Source of the DNA: an uncultured archaeon
Lineage (GTDB): Archaea > Asgardarchaeota > Thorarchaeia > Thorarchaeales > Thorarchaeaceae
Length of the DNA stretch: 12,772 nucleotides
Reading direction: 5' to 3'
NCBI GenBank assembly: GCA_964590575.1
Contig: CAZPWM010000090.1
Location: forward strand, 1-12,772
Positions 3,953-12,759 of the stretch are shown piece after piece (position 1 is the stretch's first letter; each line of letters starts with the position of its first letter). The notes below the pieces were generated by a model, which saw only the letters and a list, made by a program, of their open reading frames with translations, did not search any database and was not told the DNA's origin. Both the position numbers and the translations under genes were made by a program.

Positions 3953-4013
3953 ATAGATATATTTTTGTAACTAGGAATATATTTATTTACAAAAAAATGA
4001 AAGAGCTGATAAC

Positions 4014-4442
4014 ATGATATCCTCTAGAGAAGAAATTGCTGACACAATCAGGATGCATGGTCATCGGGCAACTCCGCAGAGAATCGTAATCTATGAAGCC
4101 CTATGGACATCAGGATCGCATCCGAGTGTTTCAGACATCCACGAGCATGCAATCAAAACGGACCCATCCATTAGTCTGGCCACCGTATACAAGACATTGC
4201 AGCTTTTTTCTGATATTGGACTGGTCAGAGAGATGGGTATCAGGGATGGACCAACTCGTTATGATCCCGATACTGAATTCCATATCAATCTCGTGTGTAA
4301 CAAATGTGGCAAAGTAGAGGATTTCAACTGTGTTTCTATCGACAAGATAGTACCAAATCTGTATGACCAAACAGGATTTCAGGCACAGAGTTATAGCTTT
4401 GAAGTGCGTGGAGTCTGTTCTAGTTGTCGAAACTCTAAGTAG
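4014..4442 (+). CDS. perR: Fur-family transcriptional regulator, PerR-like, 142 aa
   Basis: RATPQR, SHPS, SLATVYKTL, RYD, CNKC and CSSC Zn site. Asp103 (Asp rather than Glu is PerR-type). Divergent from peroxiredoxin. Confidence 0.88.
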   Translation: MISSREEIADTIRMHGHRATPQRIVIYEALWTSGSHPSVSDIHEHAIKTDPSISLATVYKTLQLFSDIGLVREMGIRDGPTRYDPDTEFHINLVCNKCGKVEDFNCVSIDKIVPNLYDQTGFQAQSYSFEVRGVCSSCRNSK

Positions 4443-4639
4443 ACATTCACCGTATCACATAGTTTGCCAAAGCAATTTCCAAGTTGCTCTCAACTCATCT
4501 TCTTCTAACTATCAAGAGGGGTCAATTAAATCGCGGTTCTTTGAGAATGTTTAAGAGCGCGAAATTGTAAGTAAAGGTTGGAAGCTGTTCTTTCTTAGAA
4601 GTTTTAACTCTAGCAATTATTTCAGCAATCAGTGAAAGT

Positions 4640-4657
4640 TACAGTAGAATTACTGTA
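4640..4657. promoter_or_regulatory. Palindrome upstream of the deacylase (operator or hairpin)
   Basis: TACAGTA-GAAT-TACTGTA perfect 7-4-7 inverted repeat about 55 nt upstream of ATG 4712. Confidence 0.4.
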
Positions 4658-4711
4658 GCAACCCTATGATATCGCTAAACGAATCTTGTCTATTCATTGG
4701 AGAGATGGCAG

Positions 4712-6361
4712 ATGACACAAGAGCTTGATTTACTCATTCGAAATGGTGCAATAGTAGACGGTTCAGGTAGTAGACCCATCAAAGCTGATGTAGGTGTCAG
4801 TGATGGTCAAATCTCTCGTATAGAACCAAATATCTCCGCTGATGCAAAGGCAGTCCTTGATGCAAAGAGAATGATTGTAAGCCCAGGGTTCATTGATATT
4901 CACAGCCATTCTGACATGAGCATACCATTCGATAATAGACTTGAGTCAATGATACGACAGGGAGTCACTACATCGGTTATTGGTAACTGTGGATCCTCTC
5001 TCGCTCCAATCAACGAGGATACACTTGATATTATCCAGAAGGATTTTGATGTCTTCTCACCCCCTGGTCACAAACTGAATATCACTTGGCGTAGTTTTCG
5101 AGAGTATCTTAAGACCTTGGAGAAGACGGGCATACCGATCAATATGGTACCGCTTGTCGGTTTTGGGACTGTTAGAATCGCAACGGGTCCAGCATTTGAT
5201 AATCGAGAACCTACAAAGAAGGAACTTGCTAATATGAAAGCAAGTGTCGCTGAGGCGATGGAGGCTGGAGCCTTTGGACTAAGCACTGGACTGTTTTATG
5301 CTCCACAAGTATTCGCGTCAACTAACGAAGTCATCGAGCTAGCGAAGACGGTGGCTGAGCACGATGGGTTATACGCCTCTCATATAAGAGGAGAAGGAGC
5401 ATCAGTAGTTCAAGCTGTTAATGAACTAATTCACATTGTGGAAGAGTCAGGCTGTAGAAGAGGACAGCTTTCGCACCACAAAATAGCTGGACGACCTTAT
5501 TGGGGAACAAGCAAAGAAACTCTCAAGCTTATTGCAGATGCTAATAGTCGCGGGCTTGTCATTGCATGTGACCAGTACCCGTATAATCGCGGAATGACCT
5601 CATTAATTTCCGCACTGCCTCCATGGGTTCACGAGGGAGGAATGGAGAGTATTCTTAATCATCTAATCACACCTGAGTCTCAAAATCAAATTATGCGAGA
5701 TGTCAATGGTGGAATTAATGGATGGGAGAACATAATCAAGGACGTCGGATGGGAGGGCATATACATTGCATCAGTCAGGACTGAAAAGTGGAGGACCATT
5801 CAAGGGAAAAGCCTACAACAAATTGCAGAGGAATACGGGTATTCTGACCCATTTCTACTGCTCTTCCAGCTTCTGCTTGATGAAACAGGCGAGGTGTCTA
5901 TGACCATCGAGAGCATGGATGAAGGAGATATTCAGCGTATCATGAAAGACAAACATACCATGATAGCAACCGATGGGTGGGGACTTTCTCCGACAGGAGT
6001 GTTTGGTTACATCAAGCCTCATCCTCGATCCTATGGGACATATCCAAGGGTCCTAAGTAAGTATGTTAGAGAAGAGGGATTACTGACTCTGGAGGAAGCT
6101 GTCTGGAAAATGACGGGATATCCAGCTAAGACACTAAGACTAGGGAATCGAGGTTTGATACGAGAAGGATATTGTGCAGATATGGTTGTATTCGATTCCG
6201 AGATGATTCAAGATAAGGCCACGTTTCTCCAGCCTCACCAGTTCCCAGTAGGAATACACCACGTGATTGTCAATGGAGAGATTGTAGTGGATGGTACCAC
6301 ACAGTTGGATATATTCCCTGGGAGGGTTCTCAGAAATGAAGCAGAAATTAGCTCAACTTAG
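4712..6361 (+). CDS. N-acyl-D-amino-acid deacylase / D-aminoacylase family amidohydrolase
   Basis: DLLIRNGAIVDGSG; PGFIDIHSHSD (HxH); GNCG Cys ligand; GLSTGLFYAP; YASHIRGE; SHHK; ATDG; HPRSYGTYPRVL. The ORF track begins at TTG 4697; ATG 4712 with GGAG (4699-4702) is preferred. Confidence 0.93.
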   Translation: MTQELDLLIRNGAIVDGSGSRPIKADVGVSDGQISRIEPNISADAKAVLDAKRMIVSPGFIDIHSHSDMSIPFDNRLESMIRQGVTTSVIGNCGSSLAPINEDTLDIIQKDFDVFSPPGHKLNITWRSFREYLKTLEKTGIPINMVPLVGFGTVRIATGPAFDNREPTKKELANMKASVAEAMEAGAFGLSTGLFYAPQVFASTNEVIELAKTVAEHDGLYASHIRGEGASVVQAVNELIHIVEESGCRRGQLSHHKIAGRPYWGTSKETLKLIADANSRGLVIACDQYPYNRGMTSLISALPPWVHEGGMESILNHLITPESQNQIMRDVNGGINGWENIIKDVGWEGIYIASVRTEKWRTIQGKSLQQIAEEYGYSDPFLLLFQLLLDETGEVSMTIESMDEGDIQRIMKDKHTMIATDGWGLSPTGVFGYIKPHPRSYGTYPRVLSKYVREEGLLTLEEAVWKMTGYPAKTLRLGNRGLIREGYCADMVVFDSEMIQDKATFLQPHQFPVGIHHVIVNGEIVVDGTTQLDIFPGRVLRNEAEISST

Positions 6362-7774
6362 ATGAGATGAAATGGTAGGAAATTCAGCATCCTTAGTGGC
6401 ATTTTCAACTTCTCTCAAAGCATCTGTGAATATGTCCAGTCCTGCTTCTGCTAGTTCGCGAGTCAAGACGAGTGGAGGCATGAATCGGACAACATTGGAA
6501 AAGTGTCCTCCTATCTCGACTATCAGTCCTCTTTGGTAACAAGCCGTCCGAACCGCCTTAGCAAATTCAGTCCAAGGCATCTTGCTCTCCTTATCCTTCA
6601 CGAATTCAATCCCCAGCATCAGTCCCTTTCCACGAGTGTCTCCAATAAACCTGCTTTCTTCTTGTAGTTCCTCGAGTCGTGGAAGGAAGACCTCCTCGCC
6701 CAACTTAGCAGCATATGTCCATAGTTTATGTTTCTTGATAAATCTCAATGTCGCAACACCTGCCGCTAGCGCTACAACATTACCCCGGAATGTTCCCACA
6801 TGCGCACCTTTTTCCCATGTGTCAAGCTTCTCATCGAAAACCAAAACGGATAATGGAAGACCTCCTCCAATTCCCTTTGATATAGTCATGATGTCAGGGG
6901 TTATGCCTGAGTGTTGATACGCCCACATTTTGCCAGTTCTAGACATACCTGCTTGAATTTCATCCACTATGAGGGGAATACAATAGTCTTCTGAGATTCT
7001 TTTGACTTCTTTAAGAAACTCGACTGGAGCTGGAAGTGACCCTCCCTCACCTTGAACTGCTTCTATGATAATAGCTGCAGGGTCAACAACTCCAGATTTT
7101 GGATCCTCTAGCACATGTTCAAGGTATCTAGCACATTCAAGACCACAGTTCGAATACTCTTTCCCAAAAGGACACCGATAGCAATATGCGTAAGGTACAA
7201 AGTGCACCTCAGGGATCATTGGCATCAAGCTTTGCTTCAATGCTTTATTTGCTGTCAATGTTATTGCACCAGCGGTCATCCCATGATATGCTCCCTCAAA
7301 GGATATCATTCCCACCCGACCTGTATTGAACTTCGCTAGCTTCATCGCTGATTCAACAGCATCCGAGCCAGTTGGAGCGACAAAAAGTAGCTTAGCAATG
7401 TTCCTCAATTTCAATGGGAGGACTGAGAGTATTTCATCCACAAGCTCCATTCTGATAGGTGTTGGAAAATCAAGAGTGTGTGTTAGTTTTCCCATTTGCT
7501 CCTTTGCAGCCTCGACAACCTCAGGATTGCAATGTCCTACGTTTAAGACTCCGGCACCTGCAAAGAAATCGATGTAGACATTTCCATCAACATCTTTTAG
7601 AGTTGCACCTTTTCCCTCTGCAAAAGCGACTGGAATTGCTTTCGGATAGGAAACTGCTGCGCTTTCAGCGTAATCTTGTTTTTGTAGCATTTCTCTGGAC
7701 CGAGGACCAGGAGGCTTTTCAAGAATTATCGCTTTATTTGAGAGGTGCAGGTCTCTAAATTTATCATCTAACAT
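6353..7774 (-). CDS. Class III PLP aminotransferase, diaminobutyrate:2-oxoglutarate aminotransferase (Dat/EctB)-like, 473 aa
   Basis: ESAAVSYP; DFFAGAGVLNVGH; HTLDFPT; PTGSDAVE; YHGMT; EAVQGEGG; DEIQAG; SKGIGGGLP (PLP Lys); GAHVGTFRGN. ATG 7774 has GGAGG at 7789-7785, so the ORF-track extension to 7900 is probably non-coding. Confidence 0.9.
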   Translation of the reverse strand: MLDDKFRDLHLSNKAIILEKPPGPRSREMLQKQDYAESAAVSYPKAIPVAFAEGKGATLKDVDGNVYIDFFAGAGVLNVGHCNPEVVEAAKEQMGKLTHTLDFPTPIRMELVDEILSVLPLKLRNIAKLLFVAPTGSDAVESAMKLAKFNTGRVGMISFEGAYHGMTAGAITLTANKALKQSLMPMIPEVHFVPYAYCYRCPFGKEYSNCGLECARYLEHVLEDPKSGVVDPAAIIIEAVQGEGGSLPAPVEFLKEVKRISEDYCIPLIVDEIQAGMSRTGKMWAYQHSGITPDIMTISKGIGGGLPLSVLVFDEKLDTWEKGAHVGTFRGNVVALAAGVATLRFIKKHKLWTYAAKLGEEVFLPRLEELQEESRFIGDTRGKGLMLGIEFVKDKESKMPWTEFAKAVRTACYQRGLIVEIGGHFSNVVRFMPPLVLTRELAEAGLDIFTDALREVENATKDAEFPTISSHLS

Positions 7775-8007: not shown

Positions 8008-8667
8008 ATGAAGACATTCATTGTTTTACCAATGAAACGCGAGAAAGAAATACCTCAAGAGTTTCAAAAGAGTGATAACCGATTTGCAGAATGTCTCGTG
8101 AGGTTCCTCATTAAAGAATATTCCAAACCTGGAGATATTGTCCTTGATATCTTTGCAGGACTTGGTACAACACTCTTTGTTGCTGAATCAATGGGAAGAA
8201 TTCCTTATGGAATTGAATTGGACTCGAATCGTTTCAAATTCATAAATGAGAACCTAGCGACAAAGGGCGGTATAATTCATGGAGACTCTCGAAAGCTTGA
8301 TGACTATAATTTACCTGATGTAGACCTTGTTTTGACATCGCCTCCATTTATGAGACACACGTCTACGAAGAACCCACTCACCGTGGACAAAACAGATGGT
8401 CATTATTCTCAATATCTTGATGAGTTGTCTGAAATTTTCCAGAGACTGAAAGGATTATTGAACCCAGATGCACATGTGATATTAGAAGTGTCTAATCTTA
8501 GGGGTGAGGAAATAACGCCCCTCGCATGGGACATATCGAGAGAAATCTCGAAGGTCCTGCATTTTGAGGGAGAGTTAGTTGTATGTTGGGAGGGCCCTGA
8601 CAATGGTAAGGGTGTCTTTGGATATGGGTATGATCACTCGTATTGTCTTGTATTCAGAAAATTCTAG
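8008..8667 (+). CDS. SAM-dependent amino-methyltransferase (N4-C/N6-A DNA methylase or Trm11-like family), orphan, 219 aa
   Basis: YSKPGDIVLDIFAGLGTT (motif I); GIELD; HGDSR; DLVLTSPPF (motif IV). No obvious large target-recognition domain and no adjacent nuclease. Confidence 0.85.
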   Translation: MKTFIVLPMKREKEIPQEFQKSDNRFAECLVRFLIKEYSKPGDIVLDIFAGLGTTLFVAESMGRIPYGIELDSNRFKFINENLATKGGIIHGDSRKLDDYNLPDVDLVLTSPPFMRHTSTKNPLTVDKTDGHYSQYLDELSEIFQRLKGLLNPDAHVILEVSNLRGEEITPLAWDISREISKVLHFEGELVVCWEGPDNGKGVFGYGYDHSYCLVFRKF

Positions 8668-8746: not shown

Positions 8747-8774
8747 TAACGGACCAAGAGGGAATTAAACCCTC
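8747..8774 (-). repeat. Degenerate tRNA 3'-end fragment A (att-like relic)
   Basis: Minus strand GAGGG-TTTAATT-CCCTC-TTGGTCC-G-TTA: perfect 5-bp T-stem, 7-nt loop, 7-nt acceptor strand, discriminator and decayed CCA, with exact tRNA spacing. No 5' half found. Confidence 0.55.
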
Positions 8775-8812
8775 ATCTTATTGTTGATTGGTTGGGTGTT
8801 CTCCTCCTCTGA

Positions 8813-8820
8813 TTTATATA
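8813..8820 (+). promoter_or_regulatory. Putative TATA box for the beta-helix gene
   Basis: TTTATATA ending 32 nt upstream of GTG 8853. Confidence 0.55.
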
Positions 8821-8852
8821 TTGGATACACACGGACAAATGCGGGGAAACTC

Positions 8853-11246
8853 GTGAAGAAAGTCAATTCTCTTTTAATACTGAGTTTTTTGTTGTGTGTG
8901 TCTTTTGTTAGTATCAGTACCATTTCTACACCTCTGTTCTTGAGTGGACCTAGAAATGACTCAACAAGAGTGCCATCATTCACAGCTCATGGGGCAATCA
9001 CAATAACAGGAGATGGAGATTTTACCACACAGGGATGGCCAGGCGACGGATCTCCAATGTCACCATATATTATTGAATCACTTGAGATAGTCACAGATGG
9101 CACATGTATAAGCATCTCAAATACTGATGCTCATTTCATCATTAGAAACTGTACATTATCTTCACCAATCATTGGAGTAGGAACCGGTATCTATCTTTCA
9201 CATGTCGACAATGGAACAATAGAGAATTGTACGATATCCTCCCTCGATACTGGAATTGAGTCATATTATACTAATGATTGCATCTTTTCTAATAACACGT
9301 TGAAAGGTTGTGGTAGCTATGGAATCTATCTGTATTCAGGCTTAAACTGCACTGTTAATGACAACAGAGTGTTCAATCTTGATGGCTATGGATTCTTCTT
9401 GGTAAGCCTAAGATACTCTCTTGTAGAACACAATAATATTTCCAACTGTAAAGAAATGGGTTTTGCTTTGGCTAGCTCACTGAATGCTTCTATTGTGAAT
9501 AATGAGATTGAAGAGAGTGGCAGATTTGGACTCTACCTCACAAACTCTTTGAACTGTACCTTCACGAACAATACGCTTGAGAATGGCGGATTTGGAGTGG
9601 GAGGAGATACTGAACCATATTGGTTCCATAATTTCTCAGAAAATACAGTAAATGGCAAATCATTTGGTTATTTCTTCAATACAAATAACACGGAGATAGA
9701 TGGAGGTCTATATGGTCAAGTATTCTTAATTGACTGCTTCAATGTGAGTCTTAATTCGGGAGTGTTTTTCAACGCTTCAGTCGGGGTCAGTCTGTTTTTC
9801 TGTATAAATTGCACAATCAGTAATGCTGTGATCAGTGAAAATCTGTATGGAATCAACTTGCTTCAATCAGAGCACACCACCCTAGTGGGTAATTCCCTTA
9901 TCGATTGTGGTGTAAGGTTTGATGGAATCGAAACCAAGTATTGGATTATTACAGAAACAGGGAACTTTGTTAATGGAAAACAATTCGGATATTTCCACAA
10001 TCAAAATGATTTGGTAATCAATGGAAACGACTATGGGCAGCTTGTCCTTGTAGATTCAAACCATCTTTCTATAACAAACGGGAGCTTCAATTCAGTGACC
10101 TGTGGTTTCGTTGCATACTCCTGCTTAAATTGTAGTATAAAGGATGCCTCATTCGTTGACAATTACCGCGATGGAATACTATTATTGAAATCGAACAACT
10201 GTACCTTGGTTAATGTGACCAGTGAGGGTTCTCGTAGTAGAGGACTCTATAATAGTGCGTCTAACAACACTATTGTAACTGCTAGCAAAATCCACGGAAA
10301 TGGAGATGGTATTTCAGTCTCTAGCTCTGACAACTTCCTCTTTGATTCCAATCAGATTTACAATAATCGTGGAAATCCCATCTATCTTAGTGGAACGTTT
10401 TATGGGATAATTGAGAACAACTCGATACATAATAATGATGGATCTCTAAGGCTCTATGTGGTCAACTATTTGCAGATTATCAACAACACGATATCTGAGA
10501 GCTTGTCAGACGGCATTTACATGGATTTCACATCAGGTGTCGTTATAGTTGGTAACAAAATCTATGGAAACACAGGTTATGGATTGAATGTCAGATCCTA
10601 TGCGTTGTTCTCTGAGATTTACGACAACATGATAGGCTTTAACACAGCAGGAAACGCTATGGATTTAGGGTTATTTGACGAGTGGGATGACGGAGCAGGT
10701 ACAGGGAACGTCTGGTCAGATTATTCAGGTACGGGGGACTATTTTATTTCAGGAATGGGGGTAGACCATTATCCACTGGGTTTTGTTAGTCGACCCGCTG
10801 ATGTACAGTATATTGTAGGAGCTGTTGTTCCAGCAATCACATGGGATGTGAGGTTACCAAATCCAGACTCGTATGCACTATTGTGGGATGGAGTTGTTAT
10901 TGCTCAAGGTTCATTGAACTCATCGTTGGAACACCTAGTAAAGCCAATTGAGGGCTTACCTGTTGATAGTTACAATCTGACTCTAGTAGTGAACGATGCG
11001 TCTGGATATAATTTGGTTGATACTGTCATCATCATTGTAGTAGAGGAATCTGTTACAACAACCACAACTACTACAACTTCTACTACCACTACTACGTTGA
11101 CTACAACAACCACGGTATCAACTACTTCAAGTACAACCACATCGACGCTTCCGCCATCAGAAATCCCAATGGTATTTGTCATCATGGCTGTTGGAGTCAT
11201 AGGTGTCTTCGTAGTCCTCATAATAATCGTCATCCGGAAAAGGTAG
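8853..11246 (+). CDS. Membrane-anchored surface protein with right-handed parallel beta-helix repeats (NosD/PbH1/pectin-lyase-like), probable Ig-like domain, Thr-rich linker and C-terminal TM
   Basis: Signal-peptide-like (M)KKVNSLLILSFLLCVSFVSIST from GTG 8853 (ORF track begins at 8781); GWPGDGSPMSPYIIE cap; many GIYL/NCT/NN ladder repeats; abundant N-x-S/T sequons; poly-Thr; hydrophobic helix followed by RKR-stop. Confidence 0.9.
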   Translation: MKKVNSLLILSFLLCVSFVSISTISTPLFLSGPRNDSTRVPSFTAHGAITITGDGDFTTQGWPGDGSPMSPYIIESLEIVTDGTCISISNTDAHFIIRNCTLSSPIIGVGTGIYLSHVDNGTIENCTISSLDTGIESYYTNDCIFSNNTLKGCGSYGIYLYSGLNCTVNDNRVFNLDGYGFFLVSLRYSLVEHNNISNCKEMGFALASSLNASIVNNEIEESGRFGLYLTNSLNCTFTNNTLENGGFGVGGDTEPYWFHNFSENTVNGKSFGYFFNTNNTEIDGGLYGQVFLIDCFNVSLNSGVFFNASVGVSLFFCINCTISNAVISENLYGINLLQSEHTTLVGNSLIDCGVRFDGIETKYWIITETGNFVNGKQFGYFHNQNDLVINGNDYGQLVLVDSNHLSITNGSFNSVTCGFVAYSCLNCSIKDASFVDNYRDGILLLKSNNCTLVNVTSEGSRSRGLYNSASNNTIVTASKIHGNGDGISVSSSDNFLFDSNQIYNNRGNPIYLSGTFYGIIENNSIHNNDGSLRLYVVNYLQIINNTISESLSDGIYMDFTSGVVIVGNKIYGNTGYGLNVRSYALFSEIYDNMIGFNTAGNAMDLGLFDEWDDGAGTGNVWSDYSGTGDYFISGMGVDHYPLGFVSRPADVQYIVGAVVPAITWDVRLPNPDSYALLWDGVVIAQGSLNSSLEHLVKPIEGLPVDSYNLTLVVNDASGYNLVDTVIIIVVEESVTTTTTTTTSTTTTTLTTTTTVSTTSSTTTSTLPPSEIPMVFVIMAVGVIGVFVVLIIIVIRKR
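11055..11147 (+). repeat. Low-complexity ACN-codon tract encoding the Thr/Ser linker
   Basis: Encodes TTTTTTTTSTTTTTLTTTTTVSTTSSTTTST with mixed synonymous codons. Confidence 0.85.
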
Positions 11247-11280
11247 ATTCAGAACCGTGTAAAAGCTGGACAAAGTAGGT

Positions 11281-11307
11281 TAGCGAGTCAGGTGGAATTT
11301 GAACCAC
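11281..11307 (-). repeat. Degenerate tRNA 3'-end fragment B (att-like relic)
   Basis: Minus strand GTGG-TTCAAAT-TCCAC-CTGACTC-G-CTA: canonical GGTTCAAAT T-loop, GTGG/CCAC stem, 7-nt acceptor strand, G, and CTA for CCA. No 5' half found upstream. Confidence 0.6.
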
Positions 11308-11402
11308 TCCATAACAGTAAGGCATCGTAGTGATTGTTCTATCTGATGACGATATTTATCTGTGAGAATCTAGTCAATGGTCAAGAGATGTGTGTGACCC
11401 AA

Positions 11403-12377
11403 ATGATAAAGACGAAAGTAACTGAAATGCTGGGATGTAAATATCCGATTATTGCAGGGACCATGGCAAGAATTTCTAATCCCGAATTTGTCGCGGCAGC
11501 TAGCAATGCTGGTGCGTGTGCTGTTTTAGCCAGTGCAAATTACAAATCTCCTGACGATCTGCGTGATGCAATCAAAAAAACGCAGTCTCTTACAAATCAA
11601 CCATTTGCAGTTAACATCAATTTGTTCCCTGCTCTGATGCCTCAGGACAAGCTAGAAGATTATGTTGATGCTACATTAGCTGAGGGCGTGAAAATCATTG
11701 AAACAAGCGGTCACAAAGCCCCAGAGGATTTAGTTCCTAAATTCAAGAACAGTGGCGCCATCTGGATCCATAAATGTGCAGGAGTGAGATACGCGAAGAA
11801 GGGAGCAGCTCTAGGTGCTGATATAGTAACGGTTGTTGGATATGAGAATGGTGGAGCTACTGGAGTCTTAGATATAGGAACGATGGTAATGACTCCATCT
11901 GTAGTTGATGCTCTTGATGTTCCTGTAATTGCTGGCGGCGGAATAACAGATGGCAGAGGCGTTGCTGCAATCTTGGCACTCGGTGCAGAGGGAGTAATCA
12001 TGGGTACAAGGATGATGGCTACAAAAGAATGTCCTATTCATGACAACCTCAAGCAAGCCTTCATTCAAGCAGTCGAAACTGATACATGTTTGGCTCTACG
12101 CTCTGTCCAAAATACCCACAGAATATGGAACAATAAAGCAGCAGAGCATTTGCTTGAACTAGAATCGCAAGGAGCTCCCCTATTTGCTCTCATTCAAGCG
12201 GCCTCTGGAGAAAAAGCACAAGAGATGTATAGGAACGGAGATATTGACGTTGGGGTTGTAAGTTGTGGTCAAGGTGTAGGCTTGATCAAAGACATACCCA
12301 CTGTCAAGGAATTACTGGATAGAATGATGGTTGAGGCTGAAGAAATAATTTCAAGACTTAACAAAATATCAAATTAG
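11403..12377 (+). CDS. Nitronate monooxygenase / FabK / NADH:quinone reductase family FMN-dependent TIM-barrel oxidoreductase
   Basis: MIKTKVTEMLGCKYPIIAGTM; AAASNAG; PFAVNINL; ETSG; WIHKC; PVIAGGGITDGRG; LALGAEGVIMGTR; SCGQGVGLI. The ORF track starts at TTG 11334; the family N-terminus fits ATG 11403. Confidence 0.92.
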   Translation: MIKTKVTEMLGCKYPIIAGTMARISNPEFVAAASNAGACAVLASANYKSPDDLRDAIKKTQSLTNQPFAVNINLFPALMPQDKLEDYVDATLAEGVKIIETSGHKAPEDLVPKFKNSGAIWIHKCAGVRYAKKGAALGADIVTVVGYENGGATGVLDIGTMVMTPSVVDALDVPVIAGGGITDGRGVAAILALGAEGVIMGTRMMATKECPIHDNLKQAFIQAVETDTCLALRSVQNTHRIWNNKAAEHLLELESQGAPLFALIQAASGEKAQEMYRNGDIDVGVVSCGQGVGLIKDIPTVKELLDRMMVEAEEIISRLNKISN

Positions 12378-12427
12378 TTTCATGCCGCGATGATTTTGTC
12401 GTTATTTGTAGACTTCGGAAAACTAGA

Positions 12428-12454
12428 TGGTGGGCTAGGAGGAATTTTTGGACC
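12428..12454 (-). repeat. Degenerate tRNA 3'-end fragment C (att-like relic)
   Basis: Minus strand GG-TCCAAAAAT-TCCTC-CTAGCCC-A-CCA: intact ACCA end and acceptor strand, T-loop with a 2-nt A-run expansion. Matches fragment B at 19 of 26 aligned positions, and 6 of the 7 differences are transitions. Confidence 0.5.
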
Positions 12455-12531
12455 AATAGTCAGACTAGGGATATGAGTCAAATACATACTATTGAATGAA
12501 TACACACTCTAATGGGAGAGTCTTCGTTAAA

Positions 12532-12759
12532 ATGAAAAAAGGAGTAGCAAAACCACGTTTTGTAGGTCAGCTGATTATGGGAATTCTAGAAATAATCATA
12601 ATCTTTGCGTTGATACCGTATGTGAATGAACTTGGTGGCTCACTGATCACATCAAGCACATATGGGAATGTGATAACGTTTGGTGTGTTAGGGTTCGTAG
12701 TTGTACATGGATCGTGGCGTATCATTGATGCTTTCACCACGATGCGCAATGCGGATTAA
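12532..12759 (+). CDS. Small hypothetical membrane protein with two predicted TM helices
   Basis: Basic N-terminus MKKGVAKPR, then hydrophobic LIMGILEIIIIFALIPYV and VITFGVLGFVVVHG segments. Alternative start at 12496; GGGAG at 12514-12518 precedes ATG 12532. Confidence 0.65.
   Translation: MKKGVAKPRFVGQLIMGILEIIIIFALIPYVNELGGSLITSSTYGNVITFGVLGFVVVHGSWRIIDAFTTMRNAD

Follow-up and report, generated by a model that had tools for sequence, protein, structure and literature searches.

The window analysed here is the whole of contig C90 (CAZPWM010000090.1; 12,772 nt) in the assembly of an uncultured thorarchaeon (GCA_964590575.1, labelled G000; 3.4 Mb, 194 contigs, 43.5% GC). The subject of this report is a set of three short minus-strand elements in the window, A, B and C, which resemble the 3' ends of tRNAs and separate single genes towards its right-hand end. 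By Pfam annotation, the window encodes, in order, a GT4 glycosyltransferase, an amino-acid kinase, the product of an unknown open reading frame (ORF), a peroxiredoxin, Fur, an amidohydrolase, a class-III aminotransferase, a short DNA-methyltransferase-like ORF, a beta-helix protein, an NMO-family flavoenzyme and a small membrane protein. The elements were noticed in an earlier reading of the DNA (the sequence-only reading), which proposed that gene cassettes had accreted at a tRNA gene. Comparison with an adjoining contig, C69, and with related genomes (G001 and so on, with their loci labelled L0xx) places A, B and C in an array of co-oriented repeats of the end of a tRNA-Lys(CTT) gene, in which they are probably the oldest boundary repeats. 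The features concerned are listed below, D being the next copy, on C69.

8747 to 8774, minus strand: element A (GAGGG TTTAATT CCCTC TTGGTCC G TTA), the most decayed copy, at the distal boundary of the beta-helix cassette.
8781 to 11246, plus strand: gene for a beta-helix/NosD-type surface protein, the sole gene between A and B (Pfam Beta_helix, 1.5e-48; NosD, 4.5e-43).
11281 to 11308, minus strand: element B (AGTGG TTCAAAT TCCAC CTGACTC G CTA), a decayed copy at the boundary between the NMO and beta-helix cassettes.
11403 to 12377, plus strand: gene for an FMN enzyme of the NMO (nitronate monooxygenase) family, the sole gene between B and C (Pfam NMO, 1.5e-61).
12428 to 12454, minus strand: element C (…CCAAAAATTCCTC CTAGCCC A CCA), a decayed copy at the boundary between the small-membrane-protein and NMO cassettes.
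12496 to 12759, plus strand: gene for a small two-helix membrane protein (likely start 12532), the sole gene between C and D.

The window itself contains no recognised tRNA: aragorn called none, none of the 31 genome-wide Rfam tRNA matches lies on C90, and Rfam in E-value mode returned five weak matches to the window, none of them to a tRNA. The array continues on a second contig. The last 55 nt of C90 are the first 55 nt of C69, this 55-mer is unique in the assembly, and the join is backed by G001, in which the same gene order lies on a single contig (NMO, a 248-aa S-adenosylmethionine (SAM)-dependent methyltransferase, a 145-aa membrane protein, Abi/HEPN genes, a plus-strand tRNA-Lys(CTT), a TnpB-like gene and an 1800-aa ORF). 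In G000 the contig break falls at the 3' end of the small membrane protein gene. At the opposite end, the reverse-strand end of contig C10 shares 55 nt with the start of the window, so the locus can be extended leftward too.

The minus strand of C69 adds D, E, F, G and H (at 160, 657, 1627, 2462 and 6673; D is window-equivalent 12877-12900), five copies in better condition, giving an array of eight co-oriented copies over ~11 kb, from C90 into C69, with one gene in six of the seven intervals. All eight align over TTCAAAT(T)CC-nn-CTGGCCCGCCA, also written TTCAAAT(T)CCnnCTGGCCCGCCA(TCT), with a T-rich trailer after; the core of the repeat is AAATCCnnnCTGGCCCGCCA, sometimes with a 5' T-stem in front. 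The minus-strand letters given for A, B and C in the sequence-only reading are identical to those found here, and the 11-nt consensus that it derived from them, CTGGCCCGCCA, is the exact 3' end of the intact copies. Its statement that the three depart from this consensus only by C>T or G>A changes also holds, all nine departures being G:C-to-A:T transitions (the four in A are all C>T), and E and F add two more of the same kind, eleven in all. Mismatches to the 11-mer number 0 in H, 0 in G, 1 in F, 1 in E, 0 in D, 2 in C, 3 in B and 4 in A. The T-arm spacing had been described as correct in all three window elements; given their uneven stems, this is fully true of A (5-bp stem, 7-nt loop) but not of B (4 bp, 8-nt loop) or C (no stem). 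The claim of one gene between neighbouring relics was borne out in the window, for the beta-helix gene (A to B) and NMO (B to C).

The three window elements have counterparts in relatives. Homologues of B are better kept there, for example ...TTCAAATCCCACCTGGCCTG in L008, and those of C directly follow the NMO stop codon, as in ...AAATCCCGTCTGGCCCGCCA (L004) and ...TTGGCCCGCCA (L006). Element A lies 45 nt beyond the TATA box of the beta-helix gene, and is supported by this position because the homologous beta-helix cassettes of G003, G005 and G006 have a repeat at the matching place, 40-130 nt past the TATA box of the gene. As a separate observation, G001 (L036, ~2420-2511) has two copies of the presumed attachment site (att) ~60 nt apart, one good and one degenerate, resembling an almost empty slot.

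The parent of the repeat is a tRNA-Lys(CTT) gene with G73, in agreement with the Lys/Arg-type acceptor predicted by the sequence-only reading. The 11-mer has 49 matches in 24 of the 28 genomes of the genus, compared with 6 for a reversed control, and these are clustered, co-oriented and mostly on the contig that carries NMO. In G005, G017, G034 and G039 the array is headed by an intact multi-intron tRNA-Lys(CTT), the exons of which align to the intronless tRNA-Lys(CTT) of G000. This head gene is interrupted at 37/38, in the T-loop and, in two genomes, in the variable region, its exon past the T-loop intron being the repeat core, AAATCCnnnCTGGCCCGCCA. Of 27 congeners, 20 have the 5' exon (at most two mismatches); nearly all of the cases listed place it 85-157 nt upstream of a same-strand repeat, and it heads the array in the loci inspected.

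Several side observations concern these tRNA genes. Additional matches to the tRNA-Lys 5' exon are present in G004, G009, G034, G035 and G039 (two each), and G005 has a 10-nt 5'-exon stub (L034, 4151-4160) 400 nt upstream of its head. Some mid-array repeats have intron tails typical of the heads of other genomes (L030, 10380; L028, 9586), suggesting displacement of whole heads. In G000, many tRNA genes contain one to three introns, with Rfam matches 104-136 nt long; aragorn without intron mode found 16 tRNAs and Rfam 31, all encoding CCA, and a tRNA-Sec is present at C120:2154-2244.

The sequence-only reading had also predicted an intact minus-strand tRNA to the right of the window. The array does continue rightward on the minus strand, and congeners do have the head gene, but in G000 the head is broken, copy H retaining only the tail of the T-loop intron and the last exon. 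Inversion, or insertion of a tRNA-bearing element, may be the origin of this disruption. A degenerate tRNA 5' stub (CGACCAGTGGCTTAGCCAGA) is located at C69:9045-9026, 2.3 kb beyond H. Between H and the stub (C69 6684-9045) are ORF75, ORF314 (transmembrane and winged helix-turn-helix-like), ORF178 and, on the opposite strand at 8922-8998, the intronless tRNA-Lys(CTT). By eye, ORF314 and ORF178, which lie between H and this tRNA, appear to encode membrane and winged-helix proteins, and none of the three ORFs gave an integrase signature in Pfam, PHROGs or NCBIfam. Farther on, C69 9064-16797 holds a 716-aa TnpB/Cas12f-like ORF and a divergent 1801-aa ORF (no Pfam match) adjoining the plus-strand tRNA-Lys(CTT), an arrangement kept in G001 (L036 7073-14803).

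The sequence-only reading had called for matches to host tRNA ends above shuffled controls, and here the generic and family-specific models differ. The generic matrix rests on 29 host tRNAs, all CCA-encoding, of which the final 28 nt were used; real tRNAs score 15-44 bits with it, and B, A and C score 9.9, 0.06 and -5.4. Genome positions scoring at or above C number 3897 (3964-4074 in three block shuffles), at or above A 820 (708-765 in three block shuffles), and at or above B 75 (12-19 shuffled), 61 of these 75 scoring at least 15 bits. This matrix on its own leaves A and C at chance level and makes B marginal. Among the high scorers other than annotated tRNAs are runs of co-oriented, well-kept tRNA 3' ends, including the C69 copies ending CTGGCCCGCCA. 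The chance-level verdict on A and C was superseded by a 25-nt family profile, made from 33 copies on C69 and in the loci of nine relatives, with the window copies excluded. In an nhmmer search of the whole genome with this profile, C ranks fifth (12.3 bits) and B sixth (11.8 bits), above every true tRNA, and of the eight best matches in 3.4 Mb, seven belong to the array and share one strand of C69/C90, the other (rank 7) being a true tRNA; A was not recovered genome-wide at E<=50. With ungapped scoring of 6,797,782 positions, 7 lie at or above the score of C (25.6 bits), 16 at or above that of B (21.3) and 46 at or above that of A (11.3). By both the nhmmer search and the ungapped genome map the family is confined to one locus, and the relics are clustered rather than evenly dispersed. 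Decayed att relics of this kind are recognisable only with a family-specific model and the neighbouring contigs, and not by generic tRNA searches.

Most intervals between repeats are single-gene units. In ten loci (G000 and nine relatives), the profile at a threshold of 6 bits gave 47 matches on the array strand and 3 on the other, two of the latter being true plus-strand tRNA-Lys genes. The 34 intervals in these loci, scanned for ORFs of at least 60 aa with a crude greedy caller, contain one ORF in 27 cases, two in 4 and four in 3; a single ORF nearly fills its interval, and some of the multi-ORF intervals conceal decayed copies such as A. A complete T-arm is present on the distal side of some cassettes. 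Relative to the repeats, every cassette keeps one polarity. In the arrays mapped, NMO and the SAM-methyltransferase are always on the strand opposite the repeats, and the Rce1/CPBP-like protease is on the repeat strand in all five arrays in which both were mapped. Among 70 NMO loci of species representatives (80 fetched, less the partial L235 and L246 and the eight loci L238-L245 with at most 68% identity), 62 repeat matches of at least 7 bits are opposite NMO and 2 are co-directional with it. Cassettes carry promoters of their own: a TATA box is conserved in the beta-helix and Rce1 cassettes, and NMO has a conserved upstream region (~11290-11402 in the window). The cargo comprises miscellaneous accessory genes (SAM-methyltransferases, GNAT, VIT1, Rce1-like, beta-helix, flavodoxin, S41 peptidase), including the defence genes AbiTii, HEPN and AbiV.

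In the window, the beta-helix protein has a Thr-rich linker and a C-terminal membrane anchor, and its likely start (GTG 8853) and TATA-like box (~8812-8820) are both conserved in alignment with relatives. It shares 58% aa identity over its full length with the product of the tRNA-proximal cassette of G005, and 55-56% with shorter homologues in G003 and G006. Of 18 congeners, 16 have an NMO copy with 85-92% aa identity; the gene is thus nearly core in the genus, and the window part of the array is old. No Pfam match was found for the small membrane protein. Beyond A, outside the recognisable array, lies one further gene of note.

8008 to 8667, plus strand: DNA-methyltransferase-like ORF (Pfam N6_N4_Mtase, 4e-18).

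It covers only profile positions 163-220 of 221 (the last 58), and may therefore be truncated or an unusual short form. No match to it was found by tblastn in the loci of nine relatives.

Comparison of the array loci places the breakpoints of gene content at the repeats. In the loci of six relatives, DNA homology to the NMO region stops inside B, at 11287-11298, and in one relative (L008) it resumes at 12429, the 3' end of C. The SAM-methyltransferase cassette, found in five genomes, can be aligned from just past one core up to where the next one ends, the flanks being unrelated, and the Rce1-like cassette, in four genomes, is alignable from core to core with unrelated sequence on both sides. 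These NMO, SAM-methyltransferase and Rce1-like loci bear out the expectation of the sequence-only reading that relatives would differ in gene content with breakpoints at the relics. The order of cassettes also varies, as seen from the tRNA outwards (Rce1, the Rce1-like cassette; MTase, the methyltransferase cassette):

G034: tRNA, PD40, Rce1, NMO.
G005: tRNA, beta-helix, Rce1, ORF224, ORF75, ... NMO.
G003: tRNA, beta-helix, Rce1, MTase, NMO.
G000: ..., MTase, Rce1, ORF166, smallTM, NMO, beta-helix, ...

In G005 the beta-helix cassette is the tRNA-proximal one, in G000 it is distal, and Rce1 and MTase change places in G003. Relative to NMO, the gene for the small membrane protein (relatives of which include those in loci L012 and L015) is distal in G018, proximal in G000 and present on both sides, as two copies, in G011. 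Similarity across lineages is much higher for one cassette than for its neighbour: the methyltransferase cassette has 95.6% nt identity between G000 and G006 (90.6% between G000 and G039), compared with 79.5% for the neighbouring NMO of G000 and G006, pointing to recent exchange of the methyltransferase cassette.

A comparable arrangement is present at a second site in G000, on contig C19 (22487-24536; L021 4488-6537), where the minus strand carries five exact copies of CTCGCCCTCCGCACCA, a tRNA-Leu-like last exon. The repeat is a 22-23-nt unit with a 16-nt tRNA-Leu-like end, and the copies are 422-627 bp apart. Each of the four intervals holds one small ORF (an unknown 95-aa protein, a CxxCxxCC protein, an unknown 119-aa protein and a PrcB_C protein), and an ICMT/PEMT-like gene lies just past the distal copy. 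The copy nearest the tRNA body has a 30-nt insert in front of it, between T-stem and T-loop. Sets of tRNA-like ends on C22 and C6 were considered as further arrays and set aside: they have full T-arms, one was called as tRNA-Thr by aragorn, and they are probably separate intron-bearing tRNA genes.

Taken together, the evidence makes it likely that the array, of which A, B and C would be the oldest and most worn boundary repeats, formed by serial site-specific accretion of integrase-less modules at tRNA-Lys(CTT), with the recombinase acting in trans. Each small module would combine a gene and its promoter with a tRNA-end attachment site, and modules would be inserted one after another by site-specific recombination within the ~20-nt core. 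Most insertions would occur at the tRNA end, displacing older modules outward, where their repeats would decay by G:C-to-A:T transitions, and recombination between repeats would allow modules to be lost or exchanged between lineages. The recombinase would not be encoded by the array, and is presumed to be supplied in trans, for example from an unbinned virus or plasmid. The circular attP form of a cassette would read ...GAGGGTTCAAATCCCTCCTGGCCCGCCA followed by the first bases of the cassette itself. Repeated integration at the T-loop sublocation fits the ~20-nt core running from T-loop to CCA, the breakpoints inside this core, the fixed polarity, the tRNA at one end and the older copies farther from it. 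The tRNA-Lys origin, the single-ORF intervals and the breakpoints at repeats also support the proposal of the sequence-only reading that very small cassettes integrated repeatedly at one tRNA. Its description of the array as integron-like is an analogy only, since IntI and attC are lacking and the cassettes have promoters of their own and mixed orientation.

A number of observations weigh against serial accretion with a recombinase in trans, foremost among them the results of the recombinase search. The tyrosine recombinase family (PF00589) has no match in G000 or in the closed chromosome of a relative, and its matches in 8 of the 28 genomes of the genus include none on an array contig. The large serine recombinase family (PF07508) is found in none of the 28. 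The resolvase domain (PF00239) has one match in G000, away from the arrays, and matches in 8 of the 28 genomes, in genes of ~200 aa only, again away from the arrays. No integrase match was obtained among the ORFs scanned within or next to the arrays, which number 123 in nine relatives, 82 in 41 metagenome loci, 12 on C69 (searched against Pfam, PHROGs and NCBIfam), 11 in the window and 10 on C19. The metagenome ORFs were those of at least 140 aa within 2 kb of a core in 41 low-GC loci, which remained from 79 fetched after removal of those with GC >0.50 and six overlapping duplicates. The core pattern has no match in a viral contig collection. With no integrase among the array ORFs, as the sequence-only reading had noted for the window and as the scans of C69, the relatives' arrays and the metagenome loci extend, we infer site-specific recombination, including its chemistry, its enzyme and any present-day activity, from the anatomy of the locus alone.

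Further points on the same side concern the arrays themselves. The decay gradient, by which repeats score lower the farther they lie from the tRNA (over 8 arrays, mean Spearman rho -0.61 and permutation p 0.0004), itself supports accretion, but its p-value is overstated because related genomes are not independent. The interval counts come from the crude ORF caller mentioned above. Three cassettes between NMO and the methyltransferase in G000 are absent from G001, in mid-array, so insertion at the head alone is insufficient, and deletions between repeats or insertion at internal repeats are needed. G000 lacks the tRNA-Lys 5' exon of the head gene, and with its head broken the array may be frozen; the old part of the array that lies in the window may likewise now be static.

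Other searches for the enzyme or for movement gave the following results. Cas1 (PF01867) and PF13495 have no match in G000, and six integrase-bearing loci of congeners contain neither an att core nor a tRNA. In Logan contigs from four salt-marsh runs, compared with C69:1-7000, no cassette-precise joint or circular junction was found, such contigs being unable to show rare forms. One weak joint links 4293 to 6443 (depth 2, side 27), and loose ends occur at 2472, inside copy G (in all four runs), and at 2448, leading into another att variant; these look like strain variants.

A bolder form of the proposal is that Thorarchaeota possess a native integron-like platform for gene capture, in which the terminal exon of an intron-split tRNA is the site, cassettes are inserted, shuffled and exchanged, and the recombinase lies outside the known tyrosine and large serine families, since none of these is detectable even in the closed chromosome. 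This is possible but doubtful. The T-loop intron that abuts the core in both the Lys and the Leu heads could have been left behind by such recombination or could guard against it.

The intervals might instead be eroded tandem islands, each the remnant of a full-size integrase-bearing element, with the single-gene appearance a product of decay and the small cassettes never mobile. Such islands are the textbook origin of displaced tRNA 3' fragments, and in the sources as cited here tycheposon islands contain partial tRNAs and degenerated elements (bioRxiv 10.1101/2020.12.28.424599), while cis-mobilizable elements (CIMEs) are by definition decayed elements that retain attL and attR (PMC5704250); the window copies are indeed old and decayed. 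This origin is nevertheless unlikely, given that 27 of the 34 intervals contain exactly one intact ORF nearly filling the interval, and that the ORFs scanned yielded neither an integrase nor a fragment of one. Moreover, one and the same single-gene unit, with a core at both ends, recurs in 4-5 genomes with different neighbours, implying that the unit moved or exchanged was already a single gene, and one cassette is far more alike across lineages than the gene beside it.

Alternatively, the array might be static and vertically inherited, its differences arising by deletion or gene conversion between repeats and by allelic exchange, with no dedicated recombinase. This would account for the absence of the three Pfam recombinase families from most genomes and of PF00589 from the closed chromosome, for the wide distribution of NMO and several other cassettes in the genus, and for the T-stem variant that the copies share within their own genome (CCCGT in G017 and G003, CCCTC or CCCAC elsewhere), as expected from gene conversion. 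It leaves unexplained how a tRNA end came to flank each gene, as well as the permutations of cassette order and the gradient of decay from the tRNA, and a 20-nt repeat is short for efficient homologous recombination, so that we give it little credence. Finally, a dispersed tRNA-derived repeat serving as a terminator or RNA-processing signal, or mere chance resemblance, is barely credible: T-rich trailers follow many copies, most C69 copies are just 3' of a same-strand gene, and A and C are at chance level by the generic matrix, but the genome-wide map restricts the family to one locus, its polarity tracks the tRNA and not the genes, and the window copies, being on the strand opposite the genes, are not within those mRNAs.

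Tandem accretion at tRNA genes is itself known, and the nearest relatives of serial module accretion at tRNA-Lys(CTT) are found among such systems. The primary papers on CIMEs and accretion are reportedly Pavlovic 2004 and Bellanger 2011. In the account drawn on here (PMC5704250), accretion of the ICESt1/ICESt3 type yields modules flanked by attL and attR copies of the 3' end of the target gene, and CIMEs are att-flanked modules without integration and transfer genes, growing by successive integration at the same site, as the array does in our interpretation. CIMEs differ in being bacterial, decayed integrative and conjugative or integrative and mobilizable elements (ICEs/IMEs) of several kb, situated beside a functional integrase-bearing element (PMC5704250). 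By contrast, the array here consists mostly of single-gene modules of 0.3-2.5 kb in an Asgard host, with no integrase-bearing partner in the array loci of nine relatives or in 41 metagenome loci. Of the features of an accretion array, it has the co-oriented repeats of the 3' end of the target tRNA, the breakpoints at repeats and, in congeners and not in G000, the head tRNA; a cognate integrase was not found in array members or in the genome by the PF00589, PF07508 and ORF scans.

The ssrA islands of Dehalococcoides, as far as the cited text goes (PMC3146451), are similar in that a tRNA-like gene is followed downstream by many 20-bp direct repeats of its 3' end, with insertion midway through the T-loop, and in being tandem, strain-variable and in some cases devoid of an integration module. 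They differ in being of phage-genome size, 16 of them carrying a six-gene integration module that includes a CcrB-like serine recombinase, DsiB (PMC3146451). No such CcrB/DsiB-like large serine recombinase module was found here (PF07508 in 0 of 28 genomes; PF00239 in ~200-aa ORFs elsewhere).

In Prochlorococcus, tycheposons as presented in the portion of the preprint used (bioRxiv 10.1101/2020.12.28.424599) likewise form series of elements separated only by partial copies of the island tRNA, in which newer arrivals displace older ones inward and which feature scattered partial tRNAs and accessory cargo. Tyrosine recombinases and replication genes define them, and 937 elements carrying an integrase are described (bioRxiv 10.1101/2020.12.28.424599). 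None of these hallmarks (tyrosine recombinase, replication or packaging genes) was found in the arrays scanned, and the unit here is one gene.

Among archaeal systems, She et al. are said to have reported in 2001 on SSV-type (Sulfolobus spindle-shaped virus) integrases and 'gene capture' at archaeal tRNA genes. Integration of this type interrupts the int gene and leaves pieces of it at the ends of the insert; as in the array, the host is archaeal, tRNA 3' fragments are reportedly left as direct repeats, and captured DNA becomes fixed. Differing from this type, no int fragments were seen here, where the intervals leave too little room for them; no integrase match was found in the interval ORFs, fragments <60 aa not having been searched for.

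The sites of integrons, attC, are imperfect palindromes ~55-140 nt long that fold in single-stranded form. The repeat here is 20-28 nt, aligns to a tRNA end and is stemless in many copies, and is on these grounds not an attC site, a judgement made without an attC covariance model. Integrons and integrase-less clusters of attC sites (CALINs) resemble the array in having single-ORF accessory cassettes, each closed by a recombination site, and archaeal integrons, in the part of PMC9668308 cited here, are mostly integrase-less CALINs that use attC sites (PMC9668308). The differences are that the repeat here is a tRNA 3' end and not a folded attC, that IntI and attI are lacking, and that the cassettes have their own TATA boxes, a mixed but cassette-specific orientation and a tRNA gene as anchor. 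Within the portion of the literature on Asgard archaea and Thorarchaeota covered, no description of such an arrangement was found, and supplementary maps may hold relevant data. What sets the array apart is the unit, a single self-contained gene, together with the lack of an integrase-bearing member in the arrays examined and the Asgard host.

The locus is a conserved, genus-wide hotspot, in which small genes (methyltransferases, acetyltransferases, CAAX-type proteases, surface beta-helix proteins, flavoenzymes and defence genes) occur as discrete units bounded by a 20-nt tRNA end, recurring in varied orders and in at least one case apparently exchanged recently between lineages. It also ties T-loop tRNA introns to integration sites, and so bears on the link between split tRNA genes and mobile-element integration that Randau and Söll reportedly proposed. 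If single-gene mobility is true, the array would be an archaeal, tRNA-based counterpart of integron cassettes, pointing to a recombinase yet to be named.

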